This document shows positions 7,002 to 36,634 of a DNA stretch of 36,682 nt, piece after piece (the first letter of the stretch is position 1; each line of letters starts with the position of its first letter). Source of the stretch: a virus. The notes below the pieces were generated by a model. It searched no databases. It worked only from the letters and a program-made list of their open reading frames with translations, and was not told the origin of the DNA. Made by a program: the position numbers and the translations under genes. The DNA lies in the UHGV virus genome UHGV-1482696; one strand, given 5' to 3'.

Positions 7002-7004
7002 CCG

Positions 7005-7556: not shown

Positions 7557-7609
7557 TTGTTCTGAATATGGCGGTGTTGCAGCACCGCCCCCTTTCCGGA
7601 GGTACGATC

Positions 7610-8629: not shown

Positions 8630-9190
8630 ATGCCTGAGTTTTCCCCTGCATTCCTTCATTCGCTGAATTTCGTTATACGCCCTGATGTTGAAGGTGGCTA
8701 TGTTAATGATCCTGCCGACCGTGGCGGCGAAACGAAATACGGCATTTCTGACCGTCGCGACGGCGTTATTGATGGCAAAACCGATGTTAACGGTGACGGA
8801 AAACCTGATACCCGCATTAAGGATTTAACCCGCGAACAGGCAGCGCAGATCTACTGGCGTGATTACTGGCTGGCGGCAAAGTGTAACGAATGGCCTGATG
8901 GTGTTTCCTTATTCGTCTTTGATGCTGCCGTTCAGCACGGTGTTAAACGCGCGATTCAAATCCTCCAGGCGGCAGCAGGTGTTGATGATGATGGCATCGT
9001 TGGCAAAAACACCCGCGCAGCCGTTCTGCGTGCCGACACTGACTGGCTGCTGTTGCAGTGTTTCCTGCGTCGTTCCCGCTATTACGCAGGGATTATCAAA
9101 TCCAGTGCCTCGCAGGGGAAATATCTGAACGGCTGGTTTAACCGTCTGGATCTGCTCGCCAGCGCCTGCCGGGAGGTTCTGCATGGGTAA
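8630..9190 (+). CDS. GH108-family muramidase-like protein with C-terminal peptidoglycan-binding domain
   Basis: N-terminal motif VEGGYVNDPADRGGETKYGIS typical of glycoside hydrolase family 108 (catalytic Glu in EGGY); C-terminal region resembles PG_binding_3; RBS GGAGGG upstream. Confidence 0.7.
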   Translation: MPEFSPAFLHSLNFVIRPDVEGGYVNDPADRGGETKYGISDRRDGVIDGKTDVNGDGKPDTRIKDLTREQAAQIYWRDYWLAAKCNEWPDGVSLFVFDAAVQHGVKRAIQILQAAAGVDDDGIVGKNTRAAVLRADTDWLLLQCFLRRSRYYAGIIKSSASQGKYLNGWFNRLDLLASACREVLHG

Positions 9191-9401
9191 AGGGTGGGAT
9201 GCGTCCTTTCAGTTCGGCAGGCGCGAACGTTTACGACAGGAGGTATTACATCGGGAGGCCGGAGGCCCGCCACCAAAGCCAATGGATTACACAGGGCACG
9301 ATGGCACCCACGGAAGTTATTACATGAAAGGCTGGCAGTCAGTTGATATGCCGGAAATTCTTCATCATTGCCTGCTTTACAGGGAGAAACATTATGTCTG
9401 A
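9183..9401 (+). CDS. Middle-operon hypothetical protein
   Basis: 72-aa ORF exactly filling the gap, start overlapping upstream stop (ATGGGTAA) and stop overlapping downstream start (ATGTCTGA). Confidence 0.5.
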   Translation: MGKGWDASFQFGRRERLRQEVLHREAGGPPPKPMDYTGHDGTHGSYYMKGWQSVDMPEILHHCLLYREKHYV

Positions 9402-9756
9402 GCGTTCTGCTCGTCAGTGGCCTGATTTTTTATCGGTGGTGTTACTGGCGCTGTTATTGTGGATAAGTCTGTTTTGTGGCTGGCGCGCGCTGATGTTTTG
9501 CTGTGCCTCGGTTTTCAGTGTTGCTTTATGTGTTGCCGCTGATTGTCTGGATGCGCTGATAATGAGCTGCCGGGTGCCTGAACATTTTGCCCGGTTCGTC
9601 TGGCCTCTGACCTGGCTGGGGAGTCTGTCCGGGCTGGGATTAGCCGTGATGGCAACGTCTCAACTGAAAACGGGTCCTGAGCATGTCATCTGGGCGCTGG
9701 CCGGATTGCTGACGTTCTGGCTCTCCTTTCGTTTTCGCGCTCGTCTGTTCGGGTAA
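9394..9756 (+). CDS. Middle-operon integral membrane protein
   Basis: ORF 9343..9756 trimmed to ATG 9394 (AGGGAG upstream); 120 aa with three to four hydrophobic helices (VVLLALLLWISLFCGW, VFSVALCVAADCL, LTWLGSLSGLGLAVMA, VIWALAGLLTFWL). Confidence 0.6.
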   Translation: MSERSARQWPDFLSVVLLALLLWISLFCGWRALMFCCASVFSVALCVAADCLDALIMSCRVPEHFARFVWPLTWLGSLSGLGLAVMATSQLKTGPEHVIWALAGLLTFWLSFRFRARLFG

Positions 9757-9765
9757 AGGGGCACC

Positions 9766-9885
9766 ATGTACAGAAAATTCAGTGATGAATGTTTCGGGCC
9801 GTCCACGCTGATTAATGCGATAAAAGTGATTGCCCTTGTGGTTCTGATAACCATCAGTGCCGTGGTGTATCTTTCTGTCTGTTAA
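9766..9885 (+). CDS. Small single-pass membrane peptide (39 aa), not in ORF track
   Basis: ATG 9766 preceded by AAGGGG; MYRKFSDECFGPSTLINAIKVIALVVLITISAVVYLSVC has one clear hydrophobic helix; fills the gap between the membrane ORF and C. Confidence 0.4.
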   Translation: MYRKFSDECFGPSTLINAIKVIALVVLITISAVVYLSVC

Positions 9886-9897
9886 CCGGGGGAAAAT

Positions 9898-10320
9898 ATG
9901 CAGCATGATTTATTTGAACACGATCCGGCAATTCGCCAGTTAATCGGACATATTGATAACATCCCGGCCCCGGAACTGGAATCACGCTGGCCCCGTTCGG
10001 TGGTTGATCTGATTGATGTTCTGGAAAACGAACTGAAACGCCAGAACGTCAGCAATCCCCGTGAGCTTGCCCGTAAACAGGCCGTTGCCCTGTCCTGTTT
10101 TCTGGGCGGGCGGCAGTTTTACATCCCCTGCGGCGATACGATCCTGACCGCGTTACGCGACGATTTGCTTTACTGCCAGTTCAATGGTCGTAACATGGAA
10201 GAACTGCGTCGCCAGTACCGCCTGTCCCAGCCGCAGATCTACCAGATTATTGCCCGCCAGAGAAAGCTGCATACACGACGTCATCAGCCTGATCTGTTCT
10301 CACCTGAAAGCCAGAAATAA
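9898..10320 (+). CDS. C: C late-gene transcription activator
   Basis: 140 aa MQHDLFEHDPAIRQLIGHIDNIPAPELESRW... matches Mu C; Mor paralogue. Confidence 0.93.
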   Translation: MQHDLFEHDPAIRQLIGHIDNIPAPELESRWPRSVVDLIDVLENELKRQNVSNPRELARKQAVALSCFLGGRQFYIPCGDTILTALRDDLLYCQFNGRNMEELRRQYRLSQPQIYQIIARQRKLHTRRHQPDLFSPESQK

Positions 10321-10343
10321 CCGGCATCCTGCCGGTTATTTCC
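10317..10343 (+). terminator. Hairpin terminator after C
   Basis: TAACCGGCA-TCC-TGCCGGTTA perfect 9-bp stem followed by TTTCC. Confidence 0.5.
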
Positions 10344-10411
10344 TGTCACCATAATCCCGCACCTGCCATCTGATTTTTTAGACTGCCATCAGAGCATTTT
10401 TTCAGGGAAGC

Positions 10412-10930
10412 ATGATGGCGGGGATACCAAAAAAACTGAAAGCCGCACTGCTGGCGGTAACGATTGCCGGTGGCGGTGTGGGTGGTTATCAGGAAATGAC
10501 CCGTCAGTCTCTGATCCATCTGGAAAATATCGCTTATCTGCCTTACCGCGATATTGCCGGTGTGCTTACGGTCTGTGTGGGACATACCGGGCCGGATATC
10601 GAAATGCGCCGTTACAGCCATGCGGAGTGTATGGCTCTCCTCGACAGTGATTTAAAACCGGTTTATGCGGTAATCGATCGTCTTGTCAGGGTGCCGCTGA
10701 CGCCATATCAGAAAACGGCGCTGGCAACGTTTATTTTCAACACCGGTGTTACCGCATTCAGTAAATCAACGCTGCTGAAAAAACTCAATGCCGGTGATTA
10801 CGCCGGAGCGCGTGACCAGATGGCCCGCTGGGTGTTTGCCGCAGGCCATAAATGGAAAGGACTGATGAACCGTCGCGAAGTGGAAATGGCAATCTGGAAT
10901 ATCAGGGGGGCGGATGACCTTCGCCAGTAA
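10412..10930 (+). CDS. lys: SAR endolysin (T4-lysozyme-like muramidase with signal-arrest-release N-terminus)
   Basis: 172 aa; weakly hydrophobic Gly/Ala-rich N-terminal segment LKAALLAVTIAGGGVGGY then catalytic E...D...T triad (ENIAYLPYRDIAGVLTVCVGHTG); matches Mu Lys. Confidence 0.92.
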   Translation: MMAGIPKKLKAALLAVTIAGGGVGGYQEMTRQSLIHLENIAYLPYRDIAGVLTVCVGHTGPDIEMRRYSHAECMALLDSDLKPVYAVIDRLVRVPLTPYQKTALATFIFNTGVTAFSKSTLLKKLNAGDYAGARDQMARWVFAAGHKWKGLMNRREVEMAIWNIRGADDLRQ

Positions 10931-11300
10931 AAGTTTACTGCTGGCAGCCGTGTTTGCCGCCGTTCTGTCCGGGGTGTTGTGGCACAGGCTGGACAGCACC
11001 CGCCACGATAACCAGACGCTGCGCCGTGAATTACAGACGGAGCAACAGGCCCGCAACACGGCTGAATGGTTGTTACACGGTCAGGAACAGACGATGCAGG
11101 TATTTTCTGCTATCCGTGCCGCAAATCGTGCCGCACGGCTGGCAGATGAGACAGAACATCATGATGCAAAAGAAAAAATTACAACAGCCATTACCGGTGA
11201 CAATTGCAGCACTCGTCCTGTGCCTGCCGTTGCTGCTGACAGGTTGCGGGAACTCGAAAAACGCACCCGTGCCATCGGTGGTGATCCTGCCCGAAACTGA
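10914..11300 (+). CDS. i-spanin (Rz-like inner-membrane spanin subunit)
   Basis: N-terminal TM helix LLLAAVFAAVLSGVLW followed by charged coiled-coil region (RRELQTEQQARNTAEW); directly after endolysin. Confidence 0.75.
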   Translation: MTFASKSLLLAAVFAAVLSGVLWHRLDSTRHDNQTLRRELQTEQQARNTAEWLLHGQEQTMQVFSAIRAANRAARLADETEHHDAKEKITTAITGDNCSTRPVPAVAADRLRELEKRTRAIGGDPARN

Positions 11301-11502
11301 TGCAGAACTGACGGAAGCAACGCCCGTTCCGCCCATGCCACAGCCCCTGACGTGGGGAGCATCCCTTCTCTGGAATGCTGACCTGTTGATGGCGCTCGGG
11401 CAGTGCAACCGCGACAAGGCATCAGTCCGGGAACAGGAGACCCGAAGGAAAGAAATTTATGAACGAAGACCAGAACCGGGCGGTGGCGCTGCTGCTCGCT
11501 GA
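11161..11502 (+). CDS. o-spanin (Rz1-like outer-membrane lipoprotein), overlapping i-spanin in another frame
   Basis: MMQKKKLQQPLPVTIAALVLCLPLLLTGC: lipoprotein signal peptide with lipobox LLTGC; Pro-rich mature region; 3-prime end uncertain. Confidence 0.6.
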   Translation: MMQKKKLQQPLPVTIAALVLCLPLLLTGCGNSKNAPVPSVVILPETDAELTEATPVPPMPQPLTWGASLLWNADLLMALGQCNRDKASVREQETRRKEIYERRPEPGGGAAAR

Positions 11503-11653
11503 ACTCTGGCAGGGGGATACCCGTGATATTCCCCGCCCGGCGGCGTATGACCCGCCTGTATTGTGTGCCGGTTGCGGTCGTGAGCTGCGGCCTGATGTGC
11601 TGAGACAGCAGCCGATGGCGAACTACTGCCACTGGTGCCGTGGAGCAGAATAA
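11459..11653 (+). CDS. TraR/DksA-type C4 zinc-finger protein
   Basis: 64 aa with C-x2-C-x17-C-x2-C (CAGCGRELRPDVLRQQPMANYCHWC). Confidence 0.65.
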   Translation: MNEDQNRAVALLLAELWQGDTRDIPRPAAYDPPVLCAGCGRELRPDVLRQQPMANYCHWCRGAE

Positions 11654-11952
11654 TGGATTTGATTTCAGTTTTAGCGTTATGGCCTTACCTGTTGCCTGTT
11701 GTGGCCGGTGGGGCCGTCTGGGCAATGCGTCGTAGTTTTGCCAGCACTGAGCGTGTGGAGCGTCTTGAAAACCGGATGACCGAAATGGAAACCCGCTACG
11801 CCAGCATCCCTGGCACAGAAGATGTACACGAAATGCGCCTGCGAATTGCGGAGCTGTCCGGCGATATCCGGGTGCTGTCCCAGCGGGTGCAGTCATTTTC
11901 CCATCAACTGGAGCTGCTGCTTGAAAACGCAGTAAACCGGAGTAATTCATGA
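11653..11952 (+). CDS. Small membrane protein, Mu gp25-like (lysis-associated)
   Basis: ATG overlaps upstream stop (TAATG); N-terminal TM helix LISVLALWPYLLPVVAGGAVWA then coiled coil; position matches Mu gp25. Confidence 0.65.
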   Translation: MDLISVLALWPYLLPVVAGGAVWAMRRSFASTERVERLENRMTEMETRYASIPGTEDVHEMRLRIAELSGDIRVLSQRVQSFSHQLELLLENAVNRSNS

Positions 11953-24060: not shown

Positions 24061-26121
24061 ATGACCGGGAAACGCTTAAAGGCGTCTGTCATTATTGATC
24101 TTAATGGCAATCTTTCCCGGCGTTCCCGCCAGTATTCGAACCAGATAAACGCCCTGTCCCGTAGCGGGCAAAGTTCCCTTCGTGCCCTGCGTATGGAGGT
24201 TGTGCGCGTTTCTGGTGCCATTGACAGAATGGGTTCACTGTCAACCCGTACATTCCGAATGCTGTCAGCCGGGGCGCTGGGTATCGCTGGTGTGGGTTAC
24301 ACCGCCAATAAACTGTTTATTGGTGCAGCCGCCCAGCGTGAGCAGCAAATTATCGCCATGAACTCGCTGTATCACGGCGATAAGGTCAGAGCGCAGGCCA
24401 TGATGGCCTGGGCAAAGCAGAACGCGAAGGACACCACGTGGGGGCTGAGTGGTGTTCTTGATGAGATCCGTTCGTCGAAAGGCTTCGGCATGACGGATGA
24501 ACAGACGAAACAGTTCATCACCATGTTGCAGGATCAGGGGGCCATGCACGGCTGGGATTTACCCACTGCACAGGGTGCCTCACTGCAACTGAAACAGATG
24601 TTTGCCCGCCAGCAAATCACAGCGGCGGATGCCAACCTGCTGACCGGTTACGGTATCAACGTTTATCAGGCGCTGGCGGATGCAACGGGAACGGACGTTA
24701 AAAAAATCCGTGATCTGGGTACAAAGGGCAAGCTGGGCATGAAATCCATTCTGACGGTATTCAGAACGCTGTCAGAACAGTCAAAAGGTGCACAGGCCAG
24801 TGCGATGAACTCCTGGGACGGGATGTTCGCCCAGATGGAAGCCAACCTGCTTGAATTTCGCATAAAGGTGGCAAACAGCGGCCCCTTTGAAGAAATCAAG
24901 AACGAGATGCGCCGGGTGCTTAACTGGCACGACATGGCGGATAAATCCGGGGAACTTGACGCCCTGGCAGAAAACATTGGTCAGAAATTTCTGACCACGT
25001 TCAGAACGGTAAAAATCGCGGCGCAGGAATTATGGCGCTGGCTGAAACCGGGTAAAGATGCGCTGGCATGGGTTGACCAGAATATTGTCAGCCTGAAAAA
25101 ACTGGCTGCTGTTCTGGTGTCTGTCTGGCTTGCCAATAAAGCCCTGAGAGCAGGCTGGGCCGTGGCAAAACCCTCATGGCAGGTTGCCAGTTATCCGTTT
25201 AAAACCGGGCGTCGTATGTGGCGCTGGATGCGAAACCGCAAACGTGGGCAGGCAGGTCTGCCGGTCCCGGATGCCATGACGTCTGAGACGCTGTTGCAGG
25301 GTATCGGCATTCAGCGTGTGTTTGTCATCAACTGGCCCCGTGGATTTGGTGGCTACGGGAGTGGCGGACGGAGCGGCGGAAGAATGGCACCGCTGTTACC
25401 CCGCCAGCCGTTATTGCTGTCCGGGCCACAGCCGCTGGCATTACCTGCACCACGCCCTGTACTGGCATTACCCCCACCCGGCGTACCGGTAACAGCACGG
25501 CCTGCACCATTACCTTTACCCGGTAAATCCGGTCTTCTGAGCAGGCTTGCAGGCAGTGCTGCCGGGCAACTGGTTACGGGAACGGTCGGAAAGCTGGCTG
25601 ATGCCGGGCGTGCTGTTGGCGGGTGGTTTTCCGGTATCGGAAACAAACTTGCAGGCAGTGCGATCGGTCGGGTTGTGACAAAAGGGGCCGGGGCGCTGGG
25701 CTGGATGGGAAAAGGTGCCGGTCGTGCGTTGTCACGTCTGGGTGGCCCGGTAATGGGGGCACTCCAGCTTGCCCCCGTCCTGATGGATGAGCAGGCGTCA
25801 ACCCATGAAAAAGCAGGCGCAATTGGCAGTACAGCCGGTGCATGGCTCGGCGGTGCCGTTGGCAGCCTTGCCGGACCGCTGGGTACGGTTGCCGGTGCCA
25901 CGCTGGGCAGTGTCGCCGGGGAGTATCTGGGCGGTTTTGTAACCGACCTGTATCAGAAATGGACGGCCCCGGATAAGGAACCGCAGGAACAAAAAGTGAA
26001 TGCGGAAGCCTCGCTGCGCGTCGAACTTGGCGAGGGGTTACGTCTGGCCAGTTCCCGTGTCACCGAGGATGGTATGGGGCTGAATATTTATGCGGGCGAT
26101 AACTACATTACAGGCTGGTAA
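24061..26121 (+). CDS. Y: Tail tape measure protein Y
   Basis: 686 aa; Gly/Ala/Pro-rich low-complexity C-terminal half with glycine-zipper-like repeats; position after chaperone. Confidence 0.88.
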   Translation: MTGKRLKASVIIDLNGNLSRRSRQYSNQINALSRSGQSSLRALRMEVVRVSGAIDRMGSLSTRTFRMLSAGALGIAGVGYTANKLFIGAAAQREQQIIAMNSLYHGDKVRAQAMMAWAKQNAKDTTWGLSGVLDEIRSSKGFGMTDEQTKQFITMLQDQGAMHGWDLPTAQGASLQLKQMFARQQITAADANLLTGYGINVYQALADATGTDVKKIRDLGTKGKLGMKSILTVFRTLSEQSKGAQASAMNSWDGMFAQMEANLLEFRIKVANSGPFEEIKNEMRRVLNWHDMADKSGELDALAENIGQKFLTTFRTVKIAAQELWRWLKPGKDALAWVDQNIVSLKKLAAVLVSVWLANKALRAGWAVAKPSWQVASYPFKTGRRMWRWMRNRKRGQAGLPVPDAMTSETLLQGIGIQRVFVINWPRGFGGYGSGGRSGGRMAPLLPRQPLLLSGPQPLALPAPRPVLALPPPGVPVTARPAPLPLPGKSGLLSRLAGSAAGQLVTGTVGKLADAGRAVGGWFSGIGNKLAGSAIGRVVTKGAGALGWMGKGAGRALSRLGGPVMGALQLAPVLMDEQASTHEKAGAIGSTAGAWLGGAVGSLAGPLGTVAGATLGSVAGEYLGGFVTDLYQKWTAPDKEPQEQKVNAEASLRVELGEGLRLASSRVTEDGMGLNIYAGDNYITGW

Positions 26122-26124
26122 ACC

Positions 26125-27612
26125 ATGTTTGAAGATGCTTTAAATGCCGTTAATGCTGTCCGGGATAAAATCAGCGGTGGTAAGAAAACAACCGGCAAAG
26201 GCACGTTCCGTAACGTGCCGTTTCTCGTCATCGAGGAGCAAAAACAGGCTGGCGGACGTCGCCTGGTTAAACGCGAGTACCCGTTACGTGATACCGGCGG
26301 CGTCAATGACCTGGGGAAAAAGCTTCGCTCCCGTACATTCAGCGCCTGCATTCTGAACAGCAACGCAGAAACAGCCAGAGATGAAGCGGGTGCGCTGATG
26401 GATGCTCTTGATGCTCCGGGTAGCGGTGAGCTGGTACATCCTGATTTCGGCACTGTGGACGTCATGGTGGATTCATGGGAATGCCGCACTAAAGCGGATG
26501 AACTGAATTATTACGCGTTCACCGTTACCGTTTATCCGTCGTTGCAGGATACTGCCCCGGACGCAGAGACAGACACCAGTGCAGCCGTACCGGCACAGGC
26601 CGTTGCTGTAACCGGTTCTCTGGGAGATACGCTGTCCTCTGTCTGGCAGACCGTAAAAGATGGCACTGCGGCGGCAACCGCCGTGATGGAAGCTGTAACC
26701 GGTGTCATCGATGATATCAGTGATGCGGTGGACAATCTGGGGGTTACGCAGACTGTCAGCGGTCTGATGGGATCGCTTTCTGCGATGAAAGGCTCTGTGA
26801 CCAGCCTGATTAACCAGCCTGCCATGCTGGCCTCCTCGCTGATGGGGGCGCTGTCCGGCGTTTCATCGTTATGCGATACCCGGACAGCATTTTCCACCTG
26901 GAACCGTCTGGCGCAGCGATTCGAACGTCGCCATGCCGCCACTGCAGGCAGACAGGGAACAATCACAACCTCGTACAACAGTCCGGTTGCAGAAAAAAAT
27001 ATTGCCACACTGAACTACGTCATGCTGGCAGCGGCGCAGACATACCGGGCAGAAGCTGCCAGCCAGGCACTGACTGCGGCACTGGATTTCAGTCGCCGGA
27101 TGGATAATGCCGCCCGTGCACCTGTACTGGATGCTCCGTCCACCACAACCGGCACAGCCAGCGGGGCCAGCAGCACATCTGCTACCGTCACACAGGGACA
27201 GTTACAGTTAACTGCCATAACCCCGGACGGCGGCTTTTCACAGGTATCCTTTTCAGACAGTGGTACAGCCACGCCCCCGGTATTTGAAAGTGTGTCCGAT
27301 ATCGGAAAAACAGCCGCCATGCTGGGAGCTGCACTGGATACCGTCATTCTGACGGCATCTGAGCAGGGCTTTTCGACAGACAGCGTTCAGCTTACGCAAC
27401 TGCGTCTGCTGGTTGTTGCCGACCTGGAAAAACGCGGGCTGCAACTGGCGGGCAGTGAAATGCACCGCCTGCCGGAGACGATGCCTGCAATGGTGGCCCT
27501 GTACCGTTACACAGGAAACAGCCGGAACTGGCAACGGCTGGCCCGCAGGAACGGTATCAGCAACCCGTTGTTTGTTCCCGGTGGTGTCAGTATTGAGGTG
27601 ATTAATGAGTAA
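26125..27612 (+). CDS. N: DNA circularization protein N
   Basis: 495 aa, matches Mu N. Confidence 0.85.
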
Positions 27613-28744
27613 TACCGTCACGCTGCGAACGGATGGCAGGCTTTTTACCGGCTGGACGTCAGTCTCTGTCACCCGCTCCATTGAATCCGTAGCCGGATAT
27701 TTTGAGCTGGGGGTGAATGTGCCACCGGGTACAGATTTATCCGGGCTGGCACCGGGGAAGGCGTTCACGCTGGAAATCGACGGGCAGATTGTCTGCACCG
27801 GTTATATCGATTCGCGGCGACGCCAGATGACCGCTGACAGCATGAAAATCACTGTCGCCGGACGTGACAAAACGGCTGACCTGATTGACTGTGCTGCCGT
27901 TTACAGTGGCGGACAGTGGAAAAACCGCACACTGGAGCAGATTGCGCGTGACCTGAGCGCCCCTTATGGCGTTACCGTTCGCTGGGAGCTTTCCGATAAG
28001 GAAAGTTCGGCAGCTTTTCCCGGCTTCACGCTGGACCATTCAGAAACCGTTTATGAGGCGCTGGTGCGTGCCTCCCGCGCACGCGGTGTACTGATGACCA
28101 GCAATGCCGCCGGAGAGCTGGTATTCAGCCGGGCTGCCAGCACAGCCACTGATGAGCTGGTTCTCGGAGAAAATCTGCTGACACTGGATTTTGAGGAAGA
28201 CTTCCGCGACCGGTTCAGCGAATACACCGTCAAGGGGTATGCCCGCGCAAACGGTGCTGAGGGTGATGATATTGATGCGAAAAGTATCGTCTCCCGGAAA
28301 GGGACCGCCACTGACAGTGATGTGACCCGTTACAGACCGATGATCATCATTGCCGACAGCAAAATTACGGCGAAGGATGCACAGGCCCGCGCCCTGCGTG
28401 AGCAACGTCGCAGACTGGCAAAATCCATCACCTTTGAGGCAGAAATTGACGGATGGACACGCAAGGACGGGCAACTCTGGATGCCGAACCTGCTGGTCAC
28501 TATTGATGCCTCGAAATATGCCATCAAAACCACAGAATTACTGGTCAGCAAAGTCACCCTGATACTGAATGACCAGGACGGGCTGAAAACCCGCGTCAGC
28601 CTTGCACCACGCGAAGGCTTTCTGGTGCCGGTTGAAAGCGACCGTAAAAACAGGAAAGGCGGCGACAGTAACGGCGGTATTGATGCGCTGGTTGAAGATT
28701 ATTATCGCAGACACCCGGAGAAAACGCCGCCGTGGAAAGAGTAA
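27605..28744 (+). CDS. P: Baseplate hub protein P
   Basis: 379 aa, synteny and similarity to Mu P. Confidence 0.85.
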
Positions 28745-29325
28745 ATGATTCCGCCCTGAACCGCCTGCTGACGCCGCTGATGCGTCGTGTGCGCCTGATG
28801 CTTGCGCGCGCTGTTGTTAACGTGATTAACGACGGGCGAAAGGTTCAGAACCTGCAGGTCGGCCTGCTGGATGATGAGGAATCTGATGAAGTGGAGCGCC
28901 TGCAAAATTACGGGCATTTCAGCGTTCCCCTGCCGGGAGCAGAGGCGCTGATTGCCTGTGTGGGCGCACAACGTGATCAGGGGATTGCTGTTGTGGTGGA
29001 AGACCGCCGCTACCGCCCGACAAATCTTGAACCGGGTGATGCAGGCATTTACCACCACGAGGGGCATCGTATCAGGCTGACAAAGGACGGACGCTGCATC
29101 ATTACCTGTAAAACGGTTGAGGTTTACGCTGATGAAAGTATGACCGTTGACACACCCAGAACCACGTTTACCGGCGACGTTGAGATCCAGAAAGGTCTGG
29201 GCGTTAAAGGTAAAAGCCAGTTCGACAGCAATATTACTGCCCCGGATGCCATCATCAATGGCAAATCGACGGATAAGCATATCCACCGTGGCGACAGCGG
29301 CGGAACCACGGGGCCAATGCAATGA
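28732..29325 (+). CDS. Q: Baseplate spike / central puncturing protein Q
   Basis: 197 aa; Mu gp45-like. Confidence 0.8.
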   Translation: MERVNDSALNRLLTPLMRRVRLMLARAVVNVINDGRKVQNLQVGLLDDEESDEVERLQNYGHFSVPLPGAEALIACVGAQRDQGIAVVVEDRRYRPTNLEPGDAGIYHHEGHRIRLTKDGRCIITCKTVEVYADESMTVDTPRTTFTGDVEIQKGLGVKGKSQFDSNITAPDAIINGKSTDKHIHRGDSGGTTGPMQ

Positions 29326-29759
29326 CCGATTTAGCCATTATCTGGACGAACGGACGCGGCGATATTGCACAGGATGGCATTGATATGCTGACCGACGACA
29401 GCCTGACAACCGATGTGACAATCTCCCTGTTTACCGACCGGCGCGCGCTGGATTCTGACACGCTGCCGGATGGTTCAGATGATCGCCGTGGATGGTGGGG
29501 TGACAGTTACCGCGACCGCCCCATCGGTTCGCGGTTGTGGCTGTTATCACGTGAAAAAGCCACACCGGATACGCTGGAACGCGCCAGAGGGTATGCCGAA
29601 GAGGCGCTGGAATGGCTGAAAACAGCGGGCCGGGTAAGTGCGATTAACGTCAGAGCGGAACAGTTACATCAGGGCTGGTTATACCTCTACATTGCACTGA
29701 CATTACCGGATGGTTCCGTTATTCCTTATGAGTTTAAAGCAGCATTTAACGGGGTTTAA
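29322..29759 (+). CDS. V: Baseplate protein V (Mu gp46-like)
   Basis: 145 aa; ATGA overlap with Q. Confidence 0.8.
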   Translation: MTDLAIIWTNGRGDIAQDGIDMLTDDSLTTDVTISLFTDRRALDSDTLPDGSDDRRGWWGDSYRDRPIGSRLWLLSREKATPDTLERARGYAEEALEWLKTAGRVSAINVRAEQLHQGWLYLYIALTLPDGSVIPYEFKAAFNGV

Positions 29760-30842
29760 ATGGCTTATTCACCACCGACATTATCATCGCTGATTGCCCG
29801 TACAGAACAGAATATTGAACAGCGCCTGCCGGGTAGCTGGCCTCAGGCCCGTGAAAAAACGCTGAGTGCCATTGCTTATGCTCAGGCAGGCCTTGCTGCC
29901 GGTTGTCACGAGCATATTTCATGGGTTGGACGGCAGATTATCCCGTCGACAGCAGATGAAGATGAGTTGCTGGAGCACTGCCGGTTCTGGGGCGTGCGCC
30001 GCAAACAGGCGACAGCCGCCAGCGGCCCGCTGACTGTCACCACATCGGCAGCGACCACCATTCCTGCCGGTACACGCTGGCAGCGTGCTGATGGTGTGGT
30101 TTACAGCCTGGCTGATGCCATTGTGATTGACCGTGCAGGAACGACGGAAATTACCGTTACCGCACTGGCTGCCGGTGAAGCAGGAAATACCGGTGAGAAT
30201 ACCCTTTTAACGTTGATCACCCCGGTTGCCTGTGTTGTTTCCGATGCCATCACTGTAAAAGGGTTTTCCGGTGGGGCTGATATTGAGAGTGCAGCGGAGC
30301 TGCTGTCACGGCTGGAATATCGTGTCCAGTATCCTCCGTTCGGCGGTAATCAGTTTGATTACGTCCGCTGGGCACGTGAAGTCAGCGGCGTTACCCGTGC
30401 CTGGTGTTTTCCGACATGGAAAGGCGGTGGCACAGTCGGGGTGACGTTTGTTATGGATAACCGGAGCAATATTTTTCCACAACCGGCAGACGTGGAACGC
30501 GTGGCAGATTATATCGCCGGTCATACTGACCCGATCACCGGTCTGATTGTCGGACAGCCTGACGGTGTAAATGTCACTGTATTTGCGCCAAAGGCAAAGC
30601 CGGTAAATCCACGGATTTATATATCACCGAAGACAGCCGAACTGAAACAGGCTATTACCCACGCCATTAATACCATGTTTTTTAATGAGGTGACGCCGGG
30701 CGGCGCACTTGCCCCCTCCCGTATTATCCGTGCGGTGGCAGGTGTTACCGGTCTGGATGATTTTGAAGTGCGTTTCCCGACAGAGATCCAGCGTTCGGAG
30801 AATACGGAACTGTTAACACCGGGGACAATTGAATGGCTGTAA
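29760..30842 (+). CDS. W: Baseplate wedge protein W (J-like)
   Basis: 360 aa, Mu gp47-like. Confidence 0.85.
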   Translation: MAYSPPTLSSLIARTEQNIEQRLPGSWPQAREKTLSAIAYAQAGLAAGCHEHISWVGRQIIPSTADEDELLEHCRFWGVRRKQATAASGPLTVTTSAATTIPAGTRWQRADGVVYSLADAIVIDRAGTTEITVTALAAGEAGNTGENTLLTLITPVACVVSDAITVKGFSGGADIESAAELLSRLEYRVQYPPFGGNQFDYVRWAREVSGVTRAWCFPTWKGGGTVGVTFVMDNRSNIFPQPADVERVADYIAGHTDPITGLIVGQPDGVNVTVFAPKAKPVNPRIYISPKTAELKQAITHAINTMFFNEVTPGGALAPSRIIRAVAGVTGLDDFEVRFPTEIQRSENTELLTPGTIEWL

Positions 30843-31375
30843 CACCCTATCAGACGGCCTTTCTGCAATTACTGCCGTCAGGGCTTGCCTGGAATAAAAG
30901 CCCCGACAGCAAATTATCTGCGCTGGCGCAGGCCATCAGCGACGTGATTGCCACTGCGGCGGATGATGCGCGGCAAATGCTGCGGGAGCGTTTCCCGTCC
31001 ACATCCCGCTGGTATCTGGGGGAGTGGGAATCATTTCTGGGGTTGCCGGACTGTACCAGCGAAAACGGCACCCTGTCCGAACGCCAGCGGGCTGCCGCGA
31101 ATAAAATGCGTATGACCGGCAATCTGAGTCGGCGCTTTTATGAATGGCTGGCTGCGCAGTACGGTTTTACCGTCAGGCTGACGGATTCCACAGAAGGCCA
31201 GTGGGTTACGCAGGTCAATATTTACGGTATTAAAAATTATCGCAACGCAACGGTGCTGGATAATGTTCTGACGCCGTTACGTGTTTATGAATCGGGTGCG
31301 CTGGAATGTTTACTGGAGAAATATAAACCCGCGCATCAGATTTATAAATTTGTTTACCATGACGGAGATAACTAA
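30833..31375 (+). CDS. R: Baseplate / tail-fibre attachment protein R (Mu gp48-like)
   Basis: 180 aa; overlaps W stop. Confidence 0.8.
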   Translation: MAVTPYQTAFLQLLPSGLAWNKSPDSKLSALAQAISDVIATAADDARQMLRERFPSTSRWYLGEWESFLGLPDCTSENGTLSERQRAAANKMRMTGNLSRRFYEWLAAQYGFTVRLTDSTEGQWVTQVNIYGIKNYRNATVLDNVLTPLRVYESGALECLLEKYKPAHQIYKFVYHDGDN

Positions 31376-32883
31376 TGTTTTATATTGATAACGACAGCGG
31401 CGTAACCGTCATGCCGCCCGTATCCGCCCAGCGTAGTGCTATCGTTCGCTGGTTTTCAGAAGGTGACGGGAATAATGTTATCACATGGCCCGGCATGGAC
31501 TGGTTTAATATTGTGCAGGCGGAGTTATTAAACACGCTGGAAGAAGCCGGTATTCAACCGGATAAAACAAAATTAAACCAGCTTGCACTGTCCATTAAAG
31601 CCATTATGAGCAATAACGCGCTGCTGATAAAAAATAACCTCAGCGAAATTAAAACTGCCGGGGCATCAGCACAGCGTACAGCACGTGAAAATCTGGATAT
31701 CTATGATGCCAGCCTGAACAAAAAAGGACTCGTTCAGCTAACCAGTGCCACTGACAGCCCCAGTGAAACGCTGGCAGCCACCGCAAAAGCGGTGAAAATT
31801 GCGATGGATAATGCCAGTGCCCGTCTGGCAAAAGACCGGAACGGAGCAGATATTCCCAATAAGCCGCTGTTTATCCAAAACCTCGGTTTACAGGAAACGG
31901 TAAACAAGGCTGGTAACGCCGTCCAAAAGACAGGCGATATCTTGTCCGGTGGGCTTACTTTTGAAAACGACTCAATCCTTGCCTGGATTCGGAATACTGA
32001 CTGGGCAAAGATTGGTTTTAAAAATGATGCCGACAGCGATACTGATTCATACATGTGGTTTGAAACAGGCGACAACGGCAATGAATATTTCAAATGGAGA
32101 AGCCGCCAGAGCACCACAACAAAAGACCTGATGAATCTTAAATGGGATGCTTTGTATGTTCTTGTTAAAGCTCTTTTCAGCAGTGAAGTAAAAATATCGA
32201 CAGTCAATGCACTGAGGATATTTAATTCATCTTTTGGTGCTATTTTTCGCCGTTCTGAAGAATGTCTTCATATCATCCCTACCCGAGAAAATGAGGGGGA
32301 AAATGGCGATATAGGGCCACTACGCCCCTTTACGCTTAATCTCAGAACTGGTCGCATAACTATGGGGCATGGTCTGGATGTTACAGGAGATATATTTGCA
32401 AACCGTTTTTTAATTAACAGCAGTACAGGCATGTGGATTCATATGCGTGACCAGAACGTTATTATGGGACGTAATGCGGTATCCACTGATGGTGCTCAGG
32501 CTTTGCTCCGTCAGGACCATGCCGACCGCAAATTTATGATTGGCGGTCTGGGAAATAAGCAATTTGGCATCTACATGATTAATAATTCAAGGACAGCCAA
32601 TGGCACCGATGGTCAGGCGTACATGGATAATAACGGGAACTGGCTTTGCGGCTCGCAAGTTATTCCCGGCAACTATGGCAATTTTGACTCACGCTATGTG
32701 AGAGATGTCCGACTTGGCACACGTGTTGTTCAATTGATGGCGCGTGGAGGACGTTATGAAATAGCCGGACACGCACTTACTGGATTAAGAATTATTGGCG
32801 AAGTTGATGGCGATGATGAAGCTATTTTCAGGCCGATACAAAAATACATCAATGGCATATGGTATAACGTCGCACAGGTGTAA
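31375..32883 (+). CDS. S: Tail fibre protein S (constant part Sc fused to variable part Sv, G(+) orientation)
   Basis: 502 aa; reading frame passes through gixL at 31871-31904 (..ADIPNKPLFIQNLGLQETVNK..). Confidence 0.9.
   Translation: MFYIDNDSGVTVMPPVSAQRSAIVRWFSEGDGNNVITWPGMDWFNIVQAELLNTLEEAGIQPDKTKLNQLALSIKAIMSNNALLIKNNLSEIKTAGASAQRTARENLDIYDASLNKKGLVQLTSATDSPSETLAATAKAVKIAMDNASARLAKDRNGADIPNKPLFIQNLGLQETVNKAGNAVQKTGDILSGGLTFENDSILAWIRNTDWAKIGFKNDADSDTDSYMWFETGDNGNEYFKWRSRQSTTTKDLMNLKWDALYVLVKALFSSEVKISTVNALRIFNSSFGAIFRRSEECLHIIPTRENEGENGDIGPLRPFTLNLRTGRITMGHGLDVTGDIFANRFLINSSTGMWIHMRDQNVIMGRNAVSTDGAQALLRQDHADRKFMIGGLGNKQFGIYMINNSRTANGTDGQAYMDNNGNWLCGSQVIPGNYGNFDSRYVRDVRLGTRVVQLMARGGRYEIAGHALTGLRIIGEVDGDDEAIFRPIQKYINGIWYNVAQV
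31871..31904. repeat. gixL recombination site (left inverted repeat of G segment)
   Basis: TTATCCAAAACCTCGGTTTACAGGAAACGGTAAA; inverted copy at 34916-34949 with one mismatch. Confidence 0.9.
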
Positions 32884-32886
32884 ATC

Positions 32887-33414
32887 ATGCAGCACTTAAA
32901 AAATATCAGGTCAGGAAACCCAAAGACAAAAGAGCAATACCAATTGACAAAGAATTTTGACGTAATCTGGTTGTGGTCAGAAGACGAAAAAAACTGGTAC
33001 GAGGAATTAAAAAACTTTCAGCCAGACACAATAAAGATTGTTTACGATGCAAATAATATTATTGTCGCCATCACTAAAGATGCCTCCACGCTTAACCCTG
33101 AAGGTTTTAGCGTCGTTGAGGTCCCCGATATAACAGCCAACCGCCGCGCTGATGATTCAGGAAAGTGGATGTTTAAGGATGGAGCTGTAGTTAAACGGAT
33201 TTATACGGCAGACGAACAGCAACAACAGGCCGAATCACAAAAGGCCGCGTTACTTTCCGAAGCAGAAAGTGTTATTCAGCCACTGGAACGCGCTGTCAGG
33301 CTGAATATGGCAACAGACGAGGAACGCACACGACTGGAAGCATGGGAACGCTACAGTGTTCTGGTCAGCCGTGTGGATACGGCAAATCCTGAATGGCCAC
33401 AAAAGCCTGAATAA
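32887..33414 (+). CDS. U: Tail fibre assembly chaperone U
   Basis: 175 aa; paralogous to the minus-strand U' ORF (shared [42 protein letters not shown]). Confidence 0.9.
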
Positions 33415-33442
33415 AAATTAAGGCCCGATAGCGGGCCTTGTT

Positions 33443-33976
33443 TCATTCTGGTTGTTCTGGAAACGTTACTGGCAGGCTGGAGGTGTCTGTGGATTCGACC
33501 TTCTGCGCATAGAGCATCCACTCGGTTAATTTTTGTTTATTCTCGTCGGAAATGATGCCCAGCCGTAGCTGTGAGTCCCATAGCTGGGTTTTATCCCTGA
33601 CAAGTTGCAACAGGCTTTGCTTTTCATTCTCTGCCTGCTGCCTCTGTTCCTCCTCGGTATAAGTTCGCTTTATCACTACGCCATCTTTGAACATCCATTT
33701 ACCCGAAATATCAGCCCGGCGATTTGCTGTAATATCAGGTAATTCAACGACGCTTGCGCCTTCCGGATTAATTGCTGAAACATCCTTTTCAATACAAATA
33801 ATAACGCCGTTATGGTCATAGACCATTTTCAAAGTGTCTGGCTGGAAATTCTTTTGTTCCTCATACCAGTTTTTTCCATCATCTGAATAAAGCCATTTGA
33901 TGTTAAATTGCTTTGTTAGCTGGTATTGCTCTTTTGTTTTAGGGTTGCCAGCAGTAATGTTTTTTAAGTGCATCAT
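33443..33976 (-). CDS. U': Alternative tail fibre assembly chaperone U'
   Basis: 177 aa on opposite strand inside G segment; paralogue of U. Confidence 0.88.
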   Translation of the reverse strand: MMHLKNITAGNPKTKEQYQLTKQFNIKWLYSDDGKNWYEEQKNFQPDTLKMVYDHNGVIICIEKDVSAINPEGASVVELPDITANRRADISGKWMFKDGVVIKRTYTEEEQRQQAENEKQSLLQLVRDKTQLWDSQLRLGIISDENKQKLTEWMLYAQKVESTDTSSLPVTFPEQPE

Positions 33977-33978
33977 CG

Positions 33979-34915
33979 TTAAATACTCCCCGCGTTATAC
34001 CACGTCCCATTAATGCAATACTGAATTGGCCTTGCCTGTGTTGTATCAATTAATTCATCACGGTTTCCGTTAACTGAACCCGTAACGACATAACCTGACC
34101 TGTCAGACCAGCCGGGACCATTCCATGTCTGAACAGATGACAGACCGCCAAGGCGAATACCTGTAATAAACCTTGAGTTACATTCTGCCCGCGTATATGC
34201 ACCAACATCTCCCGCAGAGGGTTTGCGGGTTGTGGTGTAAAACTCTGACCAGTCAGCTTCAAAGCCATAACCATCACGCGCTGAACGATAAAAGATTCCG
34301 CCATTTCTGTAATTCACGCGGAACTGTACAGCAGGGCAACTCCCCGCATTCATATTAAAGTGGAGGATTAATGTCGATGCACCACTGATATCTGCATCAT
34401 AAACGCCGCTATTCCAGTTCCAGCCAACAGCTTTATCATTTGCAACCCTGCTTCCTGTTTGCCCTAAAGCAAATGCAGGCTGCTGATTTTTCGTGTTGTA
34501 GTCTCGTCGCCAGCCAGGAGAATAACCATCACCATGATTAATATAAGTGAATTGAGCGTTAGTAGTTCCGCCACCGCTGGACGTGCTCGGCGTGGTAACG
34601 CGTATGGTCATTGCGCCGCGGGTTCCCATAACCTCAATCACGGCTCCGGCAAGGCAGATATTTCCACAACCGGTATCCGTAATAACCCTGTTTCTGGCAT
34701 AGGACCATGACCCTTTACACATCCAGTATGGATGTCGGAAAGCTCCGTTATTCTCCAGCCACGAGATAAATGCAACTGTCGACCATTCACCTTGTGAACC
34801 ATCGATATCAGTCTGACCGCTAAATGCACGACAGGCCCCTGTGTTTTGTATGAATTTATCTTTATTCGGAATATCTGCACCGTTCTGGTTTTTCTGCAAT
34901 GCGCCAGAAGCCTGA
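33979..34915 (-). CDS. S': Alternative tail-fibre variable segment S'v (no own start; expressed only after G inversion as Sc-S'v fusion)
   Basis: Minus-strand frame is open from gixR to the stop at 33979 and is in frame with Sc across the gix site (..QETVNQASGALQKNQNGADIPNK..); track start 34899 is TTG, no ATG or RBS. Confidence 0.8.
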
Positions 34916-34949
34916 TTTACCGTTTCCTGTAAACCGAGGTTTTAGATAA
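34916..34949. repeat. gixR recombination site (right inverted repeat of G segment)
   Basis: TTTACCGTTTCCTGTAAACCGAGGTTTTAGATAA = reverse complement of gixL with a single G/A difference. Confidence 0.9.
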
Positions 34950-35003
34950 TGGCCGTTTCCGGCCTGCATGGCATGATTTGCGCTTTTGGACGGGAGATTC
35001 AGC

Positions 35004-35597
35004 GTGCTGATTGGCTATGTAAGGGTATCAACAAATGACCAGAATACAGACCTGCAACGAAACGCTCTTGTTTGTGCAGGATGTGAACAAATATTTGAAG
35101 ATAAATTAAGCGGGACAAAGACAGACCGACCGGGATTAAAACGCGCTTTAAAGCGCCTTCAAAAAGGTGACACGCTGGTTGTCTGGAAACTGGATCGCCT
35201 CGGGCGAAGCATGAAACATTTGATTTCTCTCGTAGGGGAATTACGAGAGCGAGGGATTAATTTTCGCAGTCTTACTGACAGTATTGATACGTCATCTCCA
35301 ATGGGGCGTTTTTTCTTCCACGTTATGGGTGCCCTGGCTGAAATGGAACGAGAACTAATCATCGAGCGAACGATGGCTGGACTTGCTGCCGCCAGAAATA
35401 AAGGCCGTATCGGTGGGCGACCACCTAAACTAACCAAAGCGGAATGGGAGCAGGCCGGGCGTTTATTAGCACAAGGAATCCCCCGCAAGCAGGTCGCATT
35501 GATCTACGATGTGGCCCTGTCAACGCTGTATAAAAAACACCCCGCCAAACGAACGCATATAGAAAACGACGATCGAATCAATCAAATCGATCGGTAA
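35004..35597 (+). CDS. gin: Gin serine recombinase (G-segment DNA invertase)
   Basis: LIGYVRVSTNDQNTDLQRNAL... resolvase/invertase catalytic domain with active-site Ser and C-terminal HTH; likely GTG start 35004 with GGGAG 7 nt upstream (track start 34986 is TTG). Confidence 0.93.
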   Translation: MLIGYVRVSTNDQNTDLQRNALVCAGCEQIFEDKLSGTKTDRPGLKRALKRLQKGDTLVVWKLDRLGRSMKHLISLVGELRERGINFRSLTDSIDTSSPMGRFFFHVMGALAEMERELIIERTMAGLAAARNKGRIGGRPPKLTKAEWEQAGRLLAQGIPRKQVALIYDVALSTLYKKHPAKRTHIENDDRINQIDR

Positions 35598-35679
35598 TAC
35601 AGATCGATTATGCCCCAATAACCACACTCAACCCACGATGTTTTTTAAGATAGTGGCGAATTGATGCAAAGGAGGTGAA
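35571..35679 (+). promoter_or_regulatory. mom operon control region: three Dam GATC sites, T6-containing promoter Pmom
   Basis: GATC at 35571-35574, 35589-35592 and 35602-35605 (overlapping the gin 3-prime end); T6 run at 35641-35646 upstream of the com RBS GGAGG. Confidence 0.75.
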
Positions 35680-35868
35680 ATGAAATCAATTCGCTGTAAA
35701 AACTGCAACAAACTGTTATTTAAGGCGGATTCCTTTGATCACATTGAAATCAGGTGTCCGCGTTGCAAACGTCACATCATAATGCTGAATGCCTGCGAGC
35801 ATCCCACGGAGAAACATTGTGGGAAAAGAGAAAAAATCACGCATTCTGACGAAACCGTGCGTTATTGA
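35680..35868 (+). CDS. com: Com zinc-finger translational activator of mom
   Basis: 62 aa [34 protein letters not shown]: C-x2-C ... C-x2-C zinc ribbon; overlaps mom. Confidence 0.92.
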
Positions 35869-36514
35869 GTATGAAGGCCAGATTGTTGGCTATGGTTCAA
35901 AGGAGCTGCGCGTTGAAACCATATCCTGCTGGCTGGCCCGCACAATTATTCAGACAAAGCACTATTCCCGCCGTTTTGTGAATAACTCTTACCTCCACCT
36001 GGGAGTATTCAGCGGACGCGATCTGGTTGGCGTTCTCCAGTGGGGATATGCCCTTAACCCCAACTCAGGTCGTCGTGTCGTGCTTGAAACGGATAACCGG
36101 GGCTATATGGAGTTGAACCGCATGTGGCTACACGATGACATGCCCCGCAACTCTGAATCACGGGCCATCAGTTATGCACTGAAAACCATCAGGTTACTGT
36201 ATCCGTCAGTGGAGTGGGTTCAGTCCTTTGCAGACGAACGCTGCGGACGCGCAGGCGTTGTGTATCAGGCGTCGAATTTTGATTTTATTGGCAGTCATGA
36301 AAGTACATTCTACGAGCTGGATGGTGAGTGGTATCACGAGATAACGATGAACGCGATTAAGCGAGGTGGACAACGAGGCGTGTATTTACGGGCTAATAAA
36401 GAGCGTGCCGTGGTGCACAAATTTAATCAGTATCGCTACATCAGATTCCTGAACAAGCGAGCAAGGAAGCGGCTAAATACCAAACTATTCAAGGTTCAGC
36501 CATACCCTAAGTGA
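35819..36514 (+). CDS. mom: Mom DNA modification enzyme (adenine N6 carbamoylmethyl-type modification, anti-restriction)
   Basis: ORF open 35789..36514; start uncertain between ATG 35789 and in-frame GTG 35819; product with acyltransferase-like core, last gene before attR as in Mu. Confidence 0.85.
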
Positions 36515-36534
36515 TCCCCATGTAATGAATAAAA

Positions 36535-36560
36535 AGCAGTAATTAATACTGCTGTTTCAT
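36535..36560 (+). terminator. Hairpin terminator after mom
   Basis: AGCAGTA-ATTAA-TACTGCT stem followed by GTTTCATTT. Confidence 0.55.
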
Positions 36561-36629
36561 TTGAAGCGCGAAAGCTAAAGTTTTCGCATTTATCGTGAAA
36601 CGCTTTCGCGTTTTTCGTGCGCCGCTTCA
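36555..36629 (+). promoter_or_regulatory. attR: attR right transposon end with MuA binding sites R1-R3
   Basis: Three tandem CGAAA-containing MuA-type sites (GAAGCGCGAAAGC.., TTTTCGCATTTATCGTGAAACGC, TTTCGCGTTTTTCGTGCGCCGCTTCA) ending in terminal CA at 36629. Confidence 0.8.
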
Positions 36630-36634
36630 GCTGC
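36630..36634. repeat. Right copy of 5-bp target-site duplication GCTGC
   Basis: Identical to 67-71; immediately follows terminal CA of the phage right end. Confidence 0.85.

Follow-up and report, generated by a model that had tools for sequence, protein, structure and literature searches.

The region between positions 31,871 and 34,949 of the window (the whole stretch of DNA analyzed, 36,682 nucleotides) is almost certainly a Mu-type G segment, that is, a tail-fiber inversion switch catalyzed by Gin and dependent on Fis and a recombinational enhancer. This identity is assigned because Gin, the gix sites, and the orthology and order of S, U, U', and S'v match those of Mu. The anatomy of the segment, its reading frames, an intact Gin, and, in public genomes, both orientations of this exact sequence were directly observed. 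An initial annotation had read the region as a Gin-invertible G segment with paired fiber and chaperone genes, and all the elements that it named are present and match their Mu counterparts.

Genomic context and organization of the G segment

The whole window is a complete Mu-like (Muvirus) prophage (72-36629), with Mu-type ends (TG...CA) at 72 and 36629 and a 5-bp target duplication (GCTGC at 67-71 and 36630-36634). Its insertion site is E. coli fsr, to which the reconstructed empty site has 100% identity. The Mu gene set is collinear in this prophage, and Mu, D108, and PhiR68_1 are ~97% identical to the window, the identity to Mu/D108 having been measured over ~90% of the first 25 kb. The prophage in fsr is intact and apparently active. 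A whole-window Rfam scan gave no match.

The elements follow each other as Sc, gixL, Sv-U, a putative bidirectional terminator, U'-S'v on the opposite strand, gixR, and gin (Table 1), with com and then mom downstream of gin, as in Mu. The present assembly is in the G(+) state, with S/U in the expressed orientation. The gene coordinates thus confirm the earlier placement of S (Sc+Sv) and U in that orientation and of U' and S'v on the opposite strand.

Table 1. Coordinates of the features of the G segment and its surroundings in the window.
Feature	Position	Strand	Description
S	31375-32883	+	ORF made of Sc and Sv
Sc	31375-31870	+	Constant N-terminal part of S, codons 1-165, outside the invertible segment
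gixL	31871-31904	+	Left 34-bp inverted repeat; identical to gixL of Mu
gixL core	31871-31896	+	26 bp; TTATCCAAAACC TC GGTTTACAGGAA
Sv	31905-32883	+	Variable C-terminal part of S; the part expressed in G(+), the present state
U	32887-33414	+	Tail-fiber assembly chaperone paired with Sv; Caudo_TAP (Pfam), E 1e-37
Hairpin	33419-33440		GC-rich, T-runs on both strands; between convergent U and U'
U'	33443-33976	-	Alternative chaperone, silent in the present orientation; Caudo_TAP, E 6e-37
S'v	33979-34915	-	Alternative variable fiber segment; frame 33979-34941 to the TAA in gixR
gixR	34916-34949	-	Right 34-bp inverted repeat; T at position 6, outer half-site
gin	35004-35597	+	Serine DNA invertase, 197 aa, GTG start, catalytic Ser9
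Putative recombinational enhancer	35004-35300		sis, Fis-binding sites; near-identity with Mu, 5' part of gin

Recombination sites, Gin, and the enhancer

Two 34-bp inverted repeats with one mismatch, bracketing about 3.08 kb, had been described and were recovered by a repeat search. The left 34-mer, TTATCCAAAACCTCGGTTTACAGGAAACGGTAAA, has its partner on the minus strand with a single mismatch at position 6 (C versus T), and the segment spans 3,079 bp between the outer repeat ends; the pair had 0 matches in 100 dinucleotide-preserving shuffles. The gix cores, TTATCC/TAAAACC-TC-GGTTTACAGGAA, lie at 31871-31896 (+) and 34949-34924 (-) and are inverted, imperfect 26-bp dyads with a common central TC (31883-31884 in gixL). 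In G(+) as well as in G(-) relatives, the T variant is at the site next to gin, and the C/T difference at position 6 remains with the flanks in either orientation, as expected for a crossover at the center of gix. Allowing as many as 6 substitutions in the 26-bp core, no third gix-like site was found in the window, and a loose half-site pattern, TTNTCNNAAACC, matched the two outer half-sites only. A multi-inversion system of the Min or shufflon type was rejected, as there are no further gix-like sites.

As judged from its sequence, Gin is intact, being full length with Ser9 present within VLIGYVRVS. This serine is the active residue of Gin according to a passage of PMC3575834 that cites Klippel 1988. 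The protein contains a Resolvase domain (E 2e-50) and a C-terminal helix-turn-helix domain (HTH_7, E 2e-17), matches the Mu Gin structures 3UJ3 and 4M6F (E 1e-124), and is ~98% identical to Mu Gin, from which it departs by 2 aligned differences and a 4-aa C-terminal extension. Residues Q, R, and L in helix 1 of the DNA-binding domain, which are conserved among invertases, are present as EQAGRLL. The GTG start, with its Shine-Dalgarno (SD) sequence GGGAGA at 34992-34997, is preferred for gin; the upstream TTG at 34986 given by the ORF finder is an unlikely start.

The first ~300 bp of gin, up to 35300, have 4 differences from Mu DNA. Three Fis sites have been reported in the coding region of Mu gin (PMC3378877), and a crude G-N13-C scan returned Fis-like sites at 35097-35111 and 35143-35157, 46 bp apart. 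The enhancer is therefore probably located inside the 5' part of gin, as in Mu.

Fiber and chaperone modules

Sc, with 99.7-100% DNA identity to Mu and relatives, has a Phage_fiber_2 repeat at aa 113-153 and an SD-like GGAG 5' of the S ATG, and it provides the start codon, the ribosome-binding site, and transcription to both fiber versions. Reading the frames directly, Sc and S'v are in one reading frame through gix, as are Sc and Sv. Furthermore, the in-silico fusion of Sc and S'v is 488 aa long and aligns without gaps, 1-488 to 1-488, with PDB 8JU3 (Mu S'). Both the frames and this collinearity bear out the claim that S'v is in frame with Sc across the recombination site.

S'v is ~90% identical to Mu S'v. 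S of the window aligns over 1-501 with chain A of 5YVQ; its identity to Mu S is 78.5%, and its Sv part is mosaic, with two replaced, non-Mu patches in the middle (~aa 265-360) and in the last ~55 aa. Over the last 72 aa of Sv, identity is 100% with phage P88, 97% with P1 S, and 90% with P2 gpH, and the tip of Sv is of the P1/P2/P88 type and not of the Mu type. Sv and S'v are related to each other solely in their last ~70 aa (37% identity, E 1e-6), in agreement with the strong sequence difference that had been pointed out between the variable parts.

Each fiber variant has its own chaperone directly after it (Sv-U and S'v-U'). U aligns over 1-175 with chain B of PDB 5YVQ, which is Mu U, and has 93.7% identity to Mu U, and U' is 97.7% identical to Mu U'. 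The two chaperones are 58% identical (E 5e-76) and both belong to Caudo_TAP, which substantiates their proposed paralogy. Terminator-like sites are found between them on both strands (33419-33440 and 33439-33420), and this hairpin reads as a bidirectional terminator that would end the fiber operon in either orientation.

Proposed mechanism

Late tail operon transcription would run through Sc into the G segment. In G(+), Sc continues in frame into Sv, with U next, after which the central hairpin would halt transcription; U' and S'v would be silent because they lack a promoter and S'v is without a start codon. It is established for Gin and Hin that invertase dimers bind two 26-bp core sites (gix for Gin) and synapse with the Fis-bound enhancer, located inside gin, and that the DNA is then cleaved at the 2 central bp, with Ser9 forming a phosphoserine link, before rotation by 180 degrees and religation. 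Recombination by Gin would flip the 3 kb between the gix sites and fuse Sc in frame to S'v, followed by U'. G(-) particles would then carry the other receptor-binding tip and have another host range.

The recombination chemistry, its dependence on Fis, and the change in host range are expectations carried over from Mu, in which the two orientations give different host ranges (PMC4406740). A host-range switch would be expected here since, for most of their length, Sv and S'v show no relationship.

Evidence for inversion and alternative explanations

Whether both orientations are detectable was answered from public assemblies. The prophage of E. coli 2020C08-115 (NZ_CM132302.1) is practically the same phage as that of the window, in G(-) orientation. 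The inverted junction has 100% identity over 869 bp in this strain, and with G flipped in silico the window has 2 mismatches to its prophage in 11,132 bp (99.98%), the G interior being identical. Additionally, the exact S protein is found on 20 public contigs and the exact Sc+S'v fusion on 11. A further set of prophages (L010-L017) has an S protein identical to that of the window, with the same genes at the same positions in 7 of 8 loci; the chromosomal insertion sites of these and of the 2020C08-115 prophage differ from the window's. In E. coli W, the assemblies NC_017635 and NC_017664 have the same prophage at the same site in opposite G orientations. The two G segments, of 3,084 bp each, show 100% identity once one is inverted, and the assemblies otherwise differ by two 1-bp indels only. 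On this evidence, both orientations occur for exactly the window's sequence across public genomes, and within one strain for the close relative in E. coli W.

These observations make it very improbable that the lineage has kept the architecture of the G segment but lost inversion, through the gixR mismatch or poor gin expression, and makes only S and U. Prophages with exactly the window's gixL/gixR pair and the same G interior are found in either orientation, the exact S' fusion being present on 11 contigs, and Gin is full length with Ser9. The one mismatch between the repeats might suggest such a loss, and the authors of the SfMu study voiced the same worry over a 1-bp inverted-repeat mutation in SfMu (PMC4406740), but it lies at position 6 of the outer half-site, distant from the central dinucleotide. 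The spacer between gixR and gin (34950-35003) also fits a loss, as 13 of its 54 positions differ from Mu and no sigma-70-like site was found in it, where the gin promoter is expected.

With inversion as the preferred reading, S'v is expected to be silent in G(+), and it has no usable start of its own, as had been claimed. Its sole early start-like codon is an in-frame TTG at 34899, listed by the ORF finder (306 aa), which has no match to an SD sequence and whose anti-SD duplex is -2.5 kcal/mol versus -6.6 to -12.9 for S, U', gin, and com. The first ATG in frame after it is codon 74, at 34722, which has no SD sequence; internal starts further on, at codons 101-111, are preceded by weak SD-like sequences and would yield fragments without Sc. 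An independent start for S'v was rejected on these grounds. Neither was a promoter-like site found on the minus strand near gixR, between gin and S'v. Consequently, it is extremely improbable that S'v and U' are made from the minus strand without inversion, from TTG 34899 or an internal start, with two fiber types produced together. ORF finders and PGAP do call the 306-aa CDS from TTG 34899 (also in L003, L010, L013, and L017), and U' has a good SD sequence (-7.6 kcal/mol); however, the product from this TTG would miss the fiber-anchoring Sc part, a TAA in gixR stops any read-in to S'v from outside, and other pipelines label the S'v stretch "incomplete; missing N-terminus."

That the opposite orientations in databases are assembly artifacts has a negligible probability: assemblers can be misled by inverted repeats, and the E. 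coli W pair differs just in G orientation and the two indels, but 34-bp repeats are shorter than any sequencing read, so that single reads span each junction, both junction types recur across many independent assemblies and insertion sites, and Gin inversion itself predicts a mixed population with both junctions.

The stop codon in gixR

The S'v frame had been described as open right up to gixR. It is open, but it does not end at the border of the repeat, continuing 26 nt inside gixR to a TAA at 34944-34942. This TAA exists because of the single C-to-T mismatch, which changes the TTATCC of Mu to TTATCT in the fiber frame. Mu, PhiR68_1, and the E. coli W prophage have an ATG between gixR and gin whose frame continues through gixR into the cassette that is silent at the time, forming a 331-aa "headless fiber" ORF that is called by annotators. 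In the window's lineage and many relatives, the T-derived TAA closes this ORF. The C-to-T change might then be non-neutral, with the TAA selected for silencing a dominant-negative or decoy fiber fragment; we regard this as improbable, and if true it presupposes translation from the outside ATG in Mu.

Mosaicism and relation to known inversion systems

Programmed DNA inversion in the Mu G segment, together with phage host-range switching, has been textbook knowledge since about 1980, and solved structures exist for Gin, S/U, and S'. The Mu-type G segment found here is already known in kind, ordinary and long understood. The initial annotation likewise claimed no excess novelty for it, the system being the known Mu switch. 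The window shares with Mu (AF083977 / NC_000929) the genus, the genome position, the order Sc-gixL-Sv-U-U'-S'v-gixR-gin-com-mom, the strands, an identical gixL, and an S' length of 488 aa. The differences from Mu are the mosaic Sv with its non-Mu tip, the gixR change to TAA where the Mu frame is open from an ATG outside the segment, and the longer Gin C terminus.

Homologous Sv/U/U'/S'v cassettes, with ~91-94% DNA identity over ~3 kb, are found in the C segment/Cin system of phages P1 and P7 and in their relatives D6 and RCS47, and the S tip of P1 is the 97% match to the window's Sv tip noted above. These systems follow the logic of the window, with a constant fiber part outside the segment and alternative tips inside; the genome around the cassettes of P1/P7, D6, and RCS47, however, is that of an unrelated plasmid prophage. 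The inverted repeats of P1 are long (~0.6 kb), and cix lies at their ends. Hin/H of Salmonella, Pin/P of prophage e14, and Min of plasmid p15B belong to the recombinase subfamily of Gin and are Fis/enhancer-dependent, with the same type of reaction at 26-bp sites and with the enhancer placed within the invertase gene. Hin, however, flips a flagellin promoter, whereas the Gin segment of the window flips fiber coding sequence. Min has several crossover sites, unlike the window with its two gix-like sites only (<=6 substitutions).

Base composition had been presented as a mark of the segment, described as more AT-rich than the baseplate genes. The G segment does have a lower G+C content (0.45 versus 0.551), but low values extend from S to mom, with 0.482 in Sc, 0.475 in gin, and 0.479 in com-mom. 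The AT-rich block takes in the entire right end of the prophage, where G+C is lowest in G, and we rejected low G+C as a feature of the G segment alone. The proposal that the cassettes are horizontally exchanged is supported by comparison with relatives, in which the flanks are 99.5-100% identical and Sv, U, U', and S'v behave as modules, varying independently of one another.

For annotation, these results mean that the silent S'v should be described as the 3' part of an alternative S' gene and not as a 306-aa TTG CDS or a pseudogene. The relatives illustrate the independent exchange of the two halves of the G segment between phages. Since the tip of Sv is of the P1/P2/P88 type and not of the Mu type, the G(+) host range of this phage may differ from that of Mu, and the two should not be equated.

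The G segment and its inversion system

Two inverted repeats had been proposed to bracket the fibre and chaperone genes, and both are present: the 34-mer TTATCCAAAACCTCGGTTTACAGGAAACGGTAAA (gixL, 31871-31904, plus strand) recurs on the minus strand at 34916-34949 (gixR) with a single mismatch at position 6 (C versus T), the pair spanning 3,079 bp. No match to this repeat was found in 100 dinucleotide-preserving shuffles of the window. Weaker complementarity extends about 24 nt further inward, reflecting the relatedness of the opening codons of Sv and S'v, the alternative variable parts of the fibre gene. The genes of the initial annotation were recovered on the same strands, and their order, namely, Sc (the constant 5' part of S), G boundary, Sv, U, U' and S'v on the opposite strand, G boundary, gin, com, and mom, is that annotated for Mu (AF083977). 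Pfam assignments were Phage_fiber_2 and Gp34_trimer for S, Caudo_TAP for both U and U', gp37_C for S'v, Resolvase and HTH_7 for Gin, Zn_ribbon_Com for Com, and Mom for Mom. The chaperones U and U' are indeed paralogous (58% identical), and the likeness between Sv and S'v is confined to a C-terminal stretch of about 70 aa (37% identity).

Features of the Mu-like prophage and its G segment
Feature	Coordinates	Strand	Remarks
GCTGC pentamer duplicated on both flanks	67-71 and 36630-36634		
Mu-type left end	72		TGTATTG...
Repressor c	411-956	-	Mu-type
ner	1118-1345		Mu-type Ner
186-aa ORF, peptidoglycan hydrolase	8630-9190	+	GH108 and PG_binding_3 domains
S	31375-32883	+	ORF
U	32887-33414	+	ORF
Hairpin, GC-rich, T-runs on both strands	33419-33440		Between convergent chaperone genes U and U'
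U'	33443-33976	-	ORF
S'v open frame	33979-34941	-	ORF
gin start (GTG)	35004	+	Homology; GGGAGA upstream
Mu-type right end	36629		...CGCTTCA

Gin has Ser9 and departs from the Mu protein at two aligned positions; the Q, R, and L of helix 1 that invertases conserve are found as EQAGRLL, and only 4 positions distinguish the first ~300 bp of gin from Mu. The C terminus is four residues longer than that of Mu Gin (QIDR, 35583-35597). Gin dimers bind gix sites, a Fis-bound enhancer inside gin activates the synaptic tetramer, DNA is cleaved via a phosphoserine at residue 9, and one dimer rotates by 180 degrees before strand religation (PMC3575834, PMC3798978, PMC3378877). The window appears to hold all of the sequence parts needed for this inversion, with putative Fis sites and enhancer.

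Immediately outside gixL, 32 nt of Sc (31831-31862, KDRNGADIPNK) resemble a stretch just inside gixR in S'v (34862-34893, KNQNGADIPNK; 88% identity), so that S' would have the motif twice, about 30 aa apart. After the inner copy comes a 9/12 match to the outer gix half-site, the relic reaching to about 34828. This repeat, of which Mu has a weaker version, looks like a remnant of an earlier junction or duplication.

Both orientations in public genomes

A search with the junction expected after inversion (Sc, gix, and 435 nt from the start of S'v; 869 bp) gave a match of 100% identity in Escherichia coli 2020C08-115 and matches of 85-90% identity in the phages SfMu and Mu_3F6 and in other prophages. 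When 31884-34936 was flipped in silico, the match between 25500-36631 and the 2020C08-115 prophage, whose insertion site differs, extended over 11,132 bp and contained 2 mismatches, neither of them within G. At the protein level, the exact S is on record in 20 contigs and the exact in silico S' fusion in 11, from E. coli and Salmonella; the eight G(+) loci that were read encode an identical S in eight different chromosomal contexts. Furthermore, two assemblies of E. coli W share a related prophage and its insertion site, but their G segments (3,084 bp), 100% identical in sequence, lie in opposite orientations. Both orientations are therefore found across public genomes, which is evidence at the level of populations.

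Whichever cassette adjoins, the T at gix position 6 lies on the gin side in 13 to 16 relatives and in the window, a constancy that fits exchange at the gix center. In PhiR68_1 (sites 1272-1297 and 4325-4350), a G occurs at position 12 of gixL, beside the central dinucleotide, and another in the inner half-site of gixR; unlike the mismatch in the window, these changes are placed where recombination could be affected.

Reading frames and the silent cassette

The S frame reads ...PLFIQNLGLQETVNKAG... across gixL (plus strand), and the same frame reads II*NLGLQETVNQASG... across gixR (minus strand). The shared gix sequence joins Sc and S'v in one reading frame, as had been claimed, and the product of inversion in silico, a protein of 488 aa, aligns without gaps to the solved Mu S' chain 8JU3 (residues 1-488 to 1-488). 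The description of S'v as open right up to gixR needs qualification: the frame is open but is closed by a TAA (34944-34942) within the outer half of gixR, which arises from the one gix mismatch. The codon is instead CAA in Mu, in PhiR68_1, and in the E. coli W prophage, where an ATG ten codons further out (34974-34972 in window numbering, minus strand) opens a 331-aa ORF that passes gixR into the silent cassette, hence the 331-aa "tail fiber" CDSs of some annotations. It is very improbable that the TAA polymorphism functions in silencing this outside-initiated ORF.

The only early in-frame start-like codon of S'v in the window is a TTG at 34899. The 20 nt that precede it pair with the anti-Shine-Dalgarno sequence at only -2.5 kcal/mol, versus -6.6 to -12.9 kcal/mol for S, U', gin, and com, and no promoter-like site was found on the minus strand between gin and S'v; consequently, the statement that S'v has no start of its own stands. 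Across the public loci compared (elppa5 prophage L003, 2072-5170; L005, L006, L007, and L008; and L010-L017, prophages with identical S), the silent cassette is annotated inconsistently: some records start a 306-aa CDS at the TTG, some start a 331-aa CDS at the outside ATG, some give a pseudogene "missing N-terminus," and some leave the cassette uncalled.

The prophage and its differences from Mu

By its sequence, the whole window is a Mu-like prophage. Compared with Mu, D108, PhiR68_1, and Yersinia Mu-like phages, 72-25000 shows ~97% identity over ~90% of its length, and the right 5.4 kb shows 93-96% identity. Joining both flanks through a single GCTGC copy reconstructed an empty site of 119 bp, which is uninterrupted E. 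coli fsr (100% identity; at least 80% query coverage in 5,410 of 5,426 genomes). Together with the Mu-type ends and the pentamer repeat, this indicates insertion by Mu-type transposition in fsr, the fosmidomycin MFS transporter gene, which the prophage disrupts.

No alignment to Mu DNA was obtained for the immunity region (530-1510: repressor c, ner, and the beginning of A), and the immunity type is probably different from that of Mu. In the early region, segments 4567-5077, 6436-6990, and about 7500-7550 have no Mu counterpart, ORFs 4576-4788, 4658-5071, and 6447-7001 match only PHROGs of unknown function, and Mu 6921-8170 is absent from the window. Mu likewise has no counterpart of the 186-aa hydrolase ORF at that place; this ORF is additional to 9182-11935, which aligns with the part of Mu holding the endolysin gene, and the ORF upstream of it (8158-8547) should be a mor homologue. 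Relative to the mom start given in the Mu record, the ORF here begins 10 codons earlier (35789-35818), and public annotations use both starts (231 or 241 aa).

Mosaic cassettes and host range

Cassette exchange is an established observation for the fibres of Mu, P1, and P2. Among eight relatives, gp48 plus Sc (99.5-100% identity to the window) and gin and com-mom (96.5-100%) are conserved, and each of the four modules within G varies on its own. The prophage of elppa5 matches U' and S'v exactly but carries a different Sv that shows no match to the tip; the Z0117EC0098 prophage has an identical Sv with unrelated S'v/U'; and Mu is without the Sv patch 32171-32361 and the tip. The last 72 aa of S (32665-32883) share 100% identity with phage P88, 97% with P1 S, and 90% with P2 gpH, and the predicted receptor-binding tip is not of the Mu type. 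These conserved flanks, independent modules, and non-Mu tip support the proposal of horizontally exchanged host-range cassettes. In elppa5, two separate CDSs cover S and gp47 has a frameshift; the gin gene of Z0117EC0098 has one as well. G does have the lowest G+C (0.45, versus 0.551 in the baseplate genes and 0.521 overall), but the AT-rich block is wider than described, as Sc, gin, and com-mom are also low (0.475-0.482).

The initial observation is confirmed and its interpretation supported. Three small corrections apply: gixR contains a TAA, ORF finders pick up a TTG, and the AT-rich block extends beyond G. The phage is closely related to Mu, and the region is the G segment already known from Mu. 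In Mu, G(+) gives S/U and G(-) gives S'/U', with different host ranges (PMC4406740), and by analogy the phage in this window would switch host range upon inversion. Given its P88/P1/P2-like tip, the G(+) host range may follow that of P1 and P2 rather than that of Mu.
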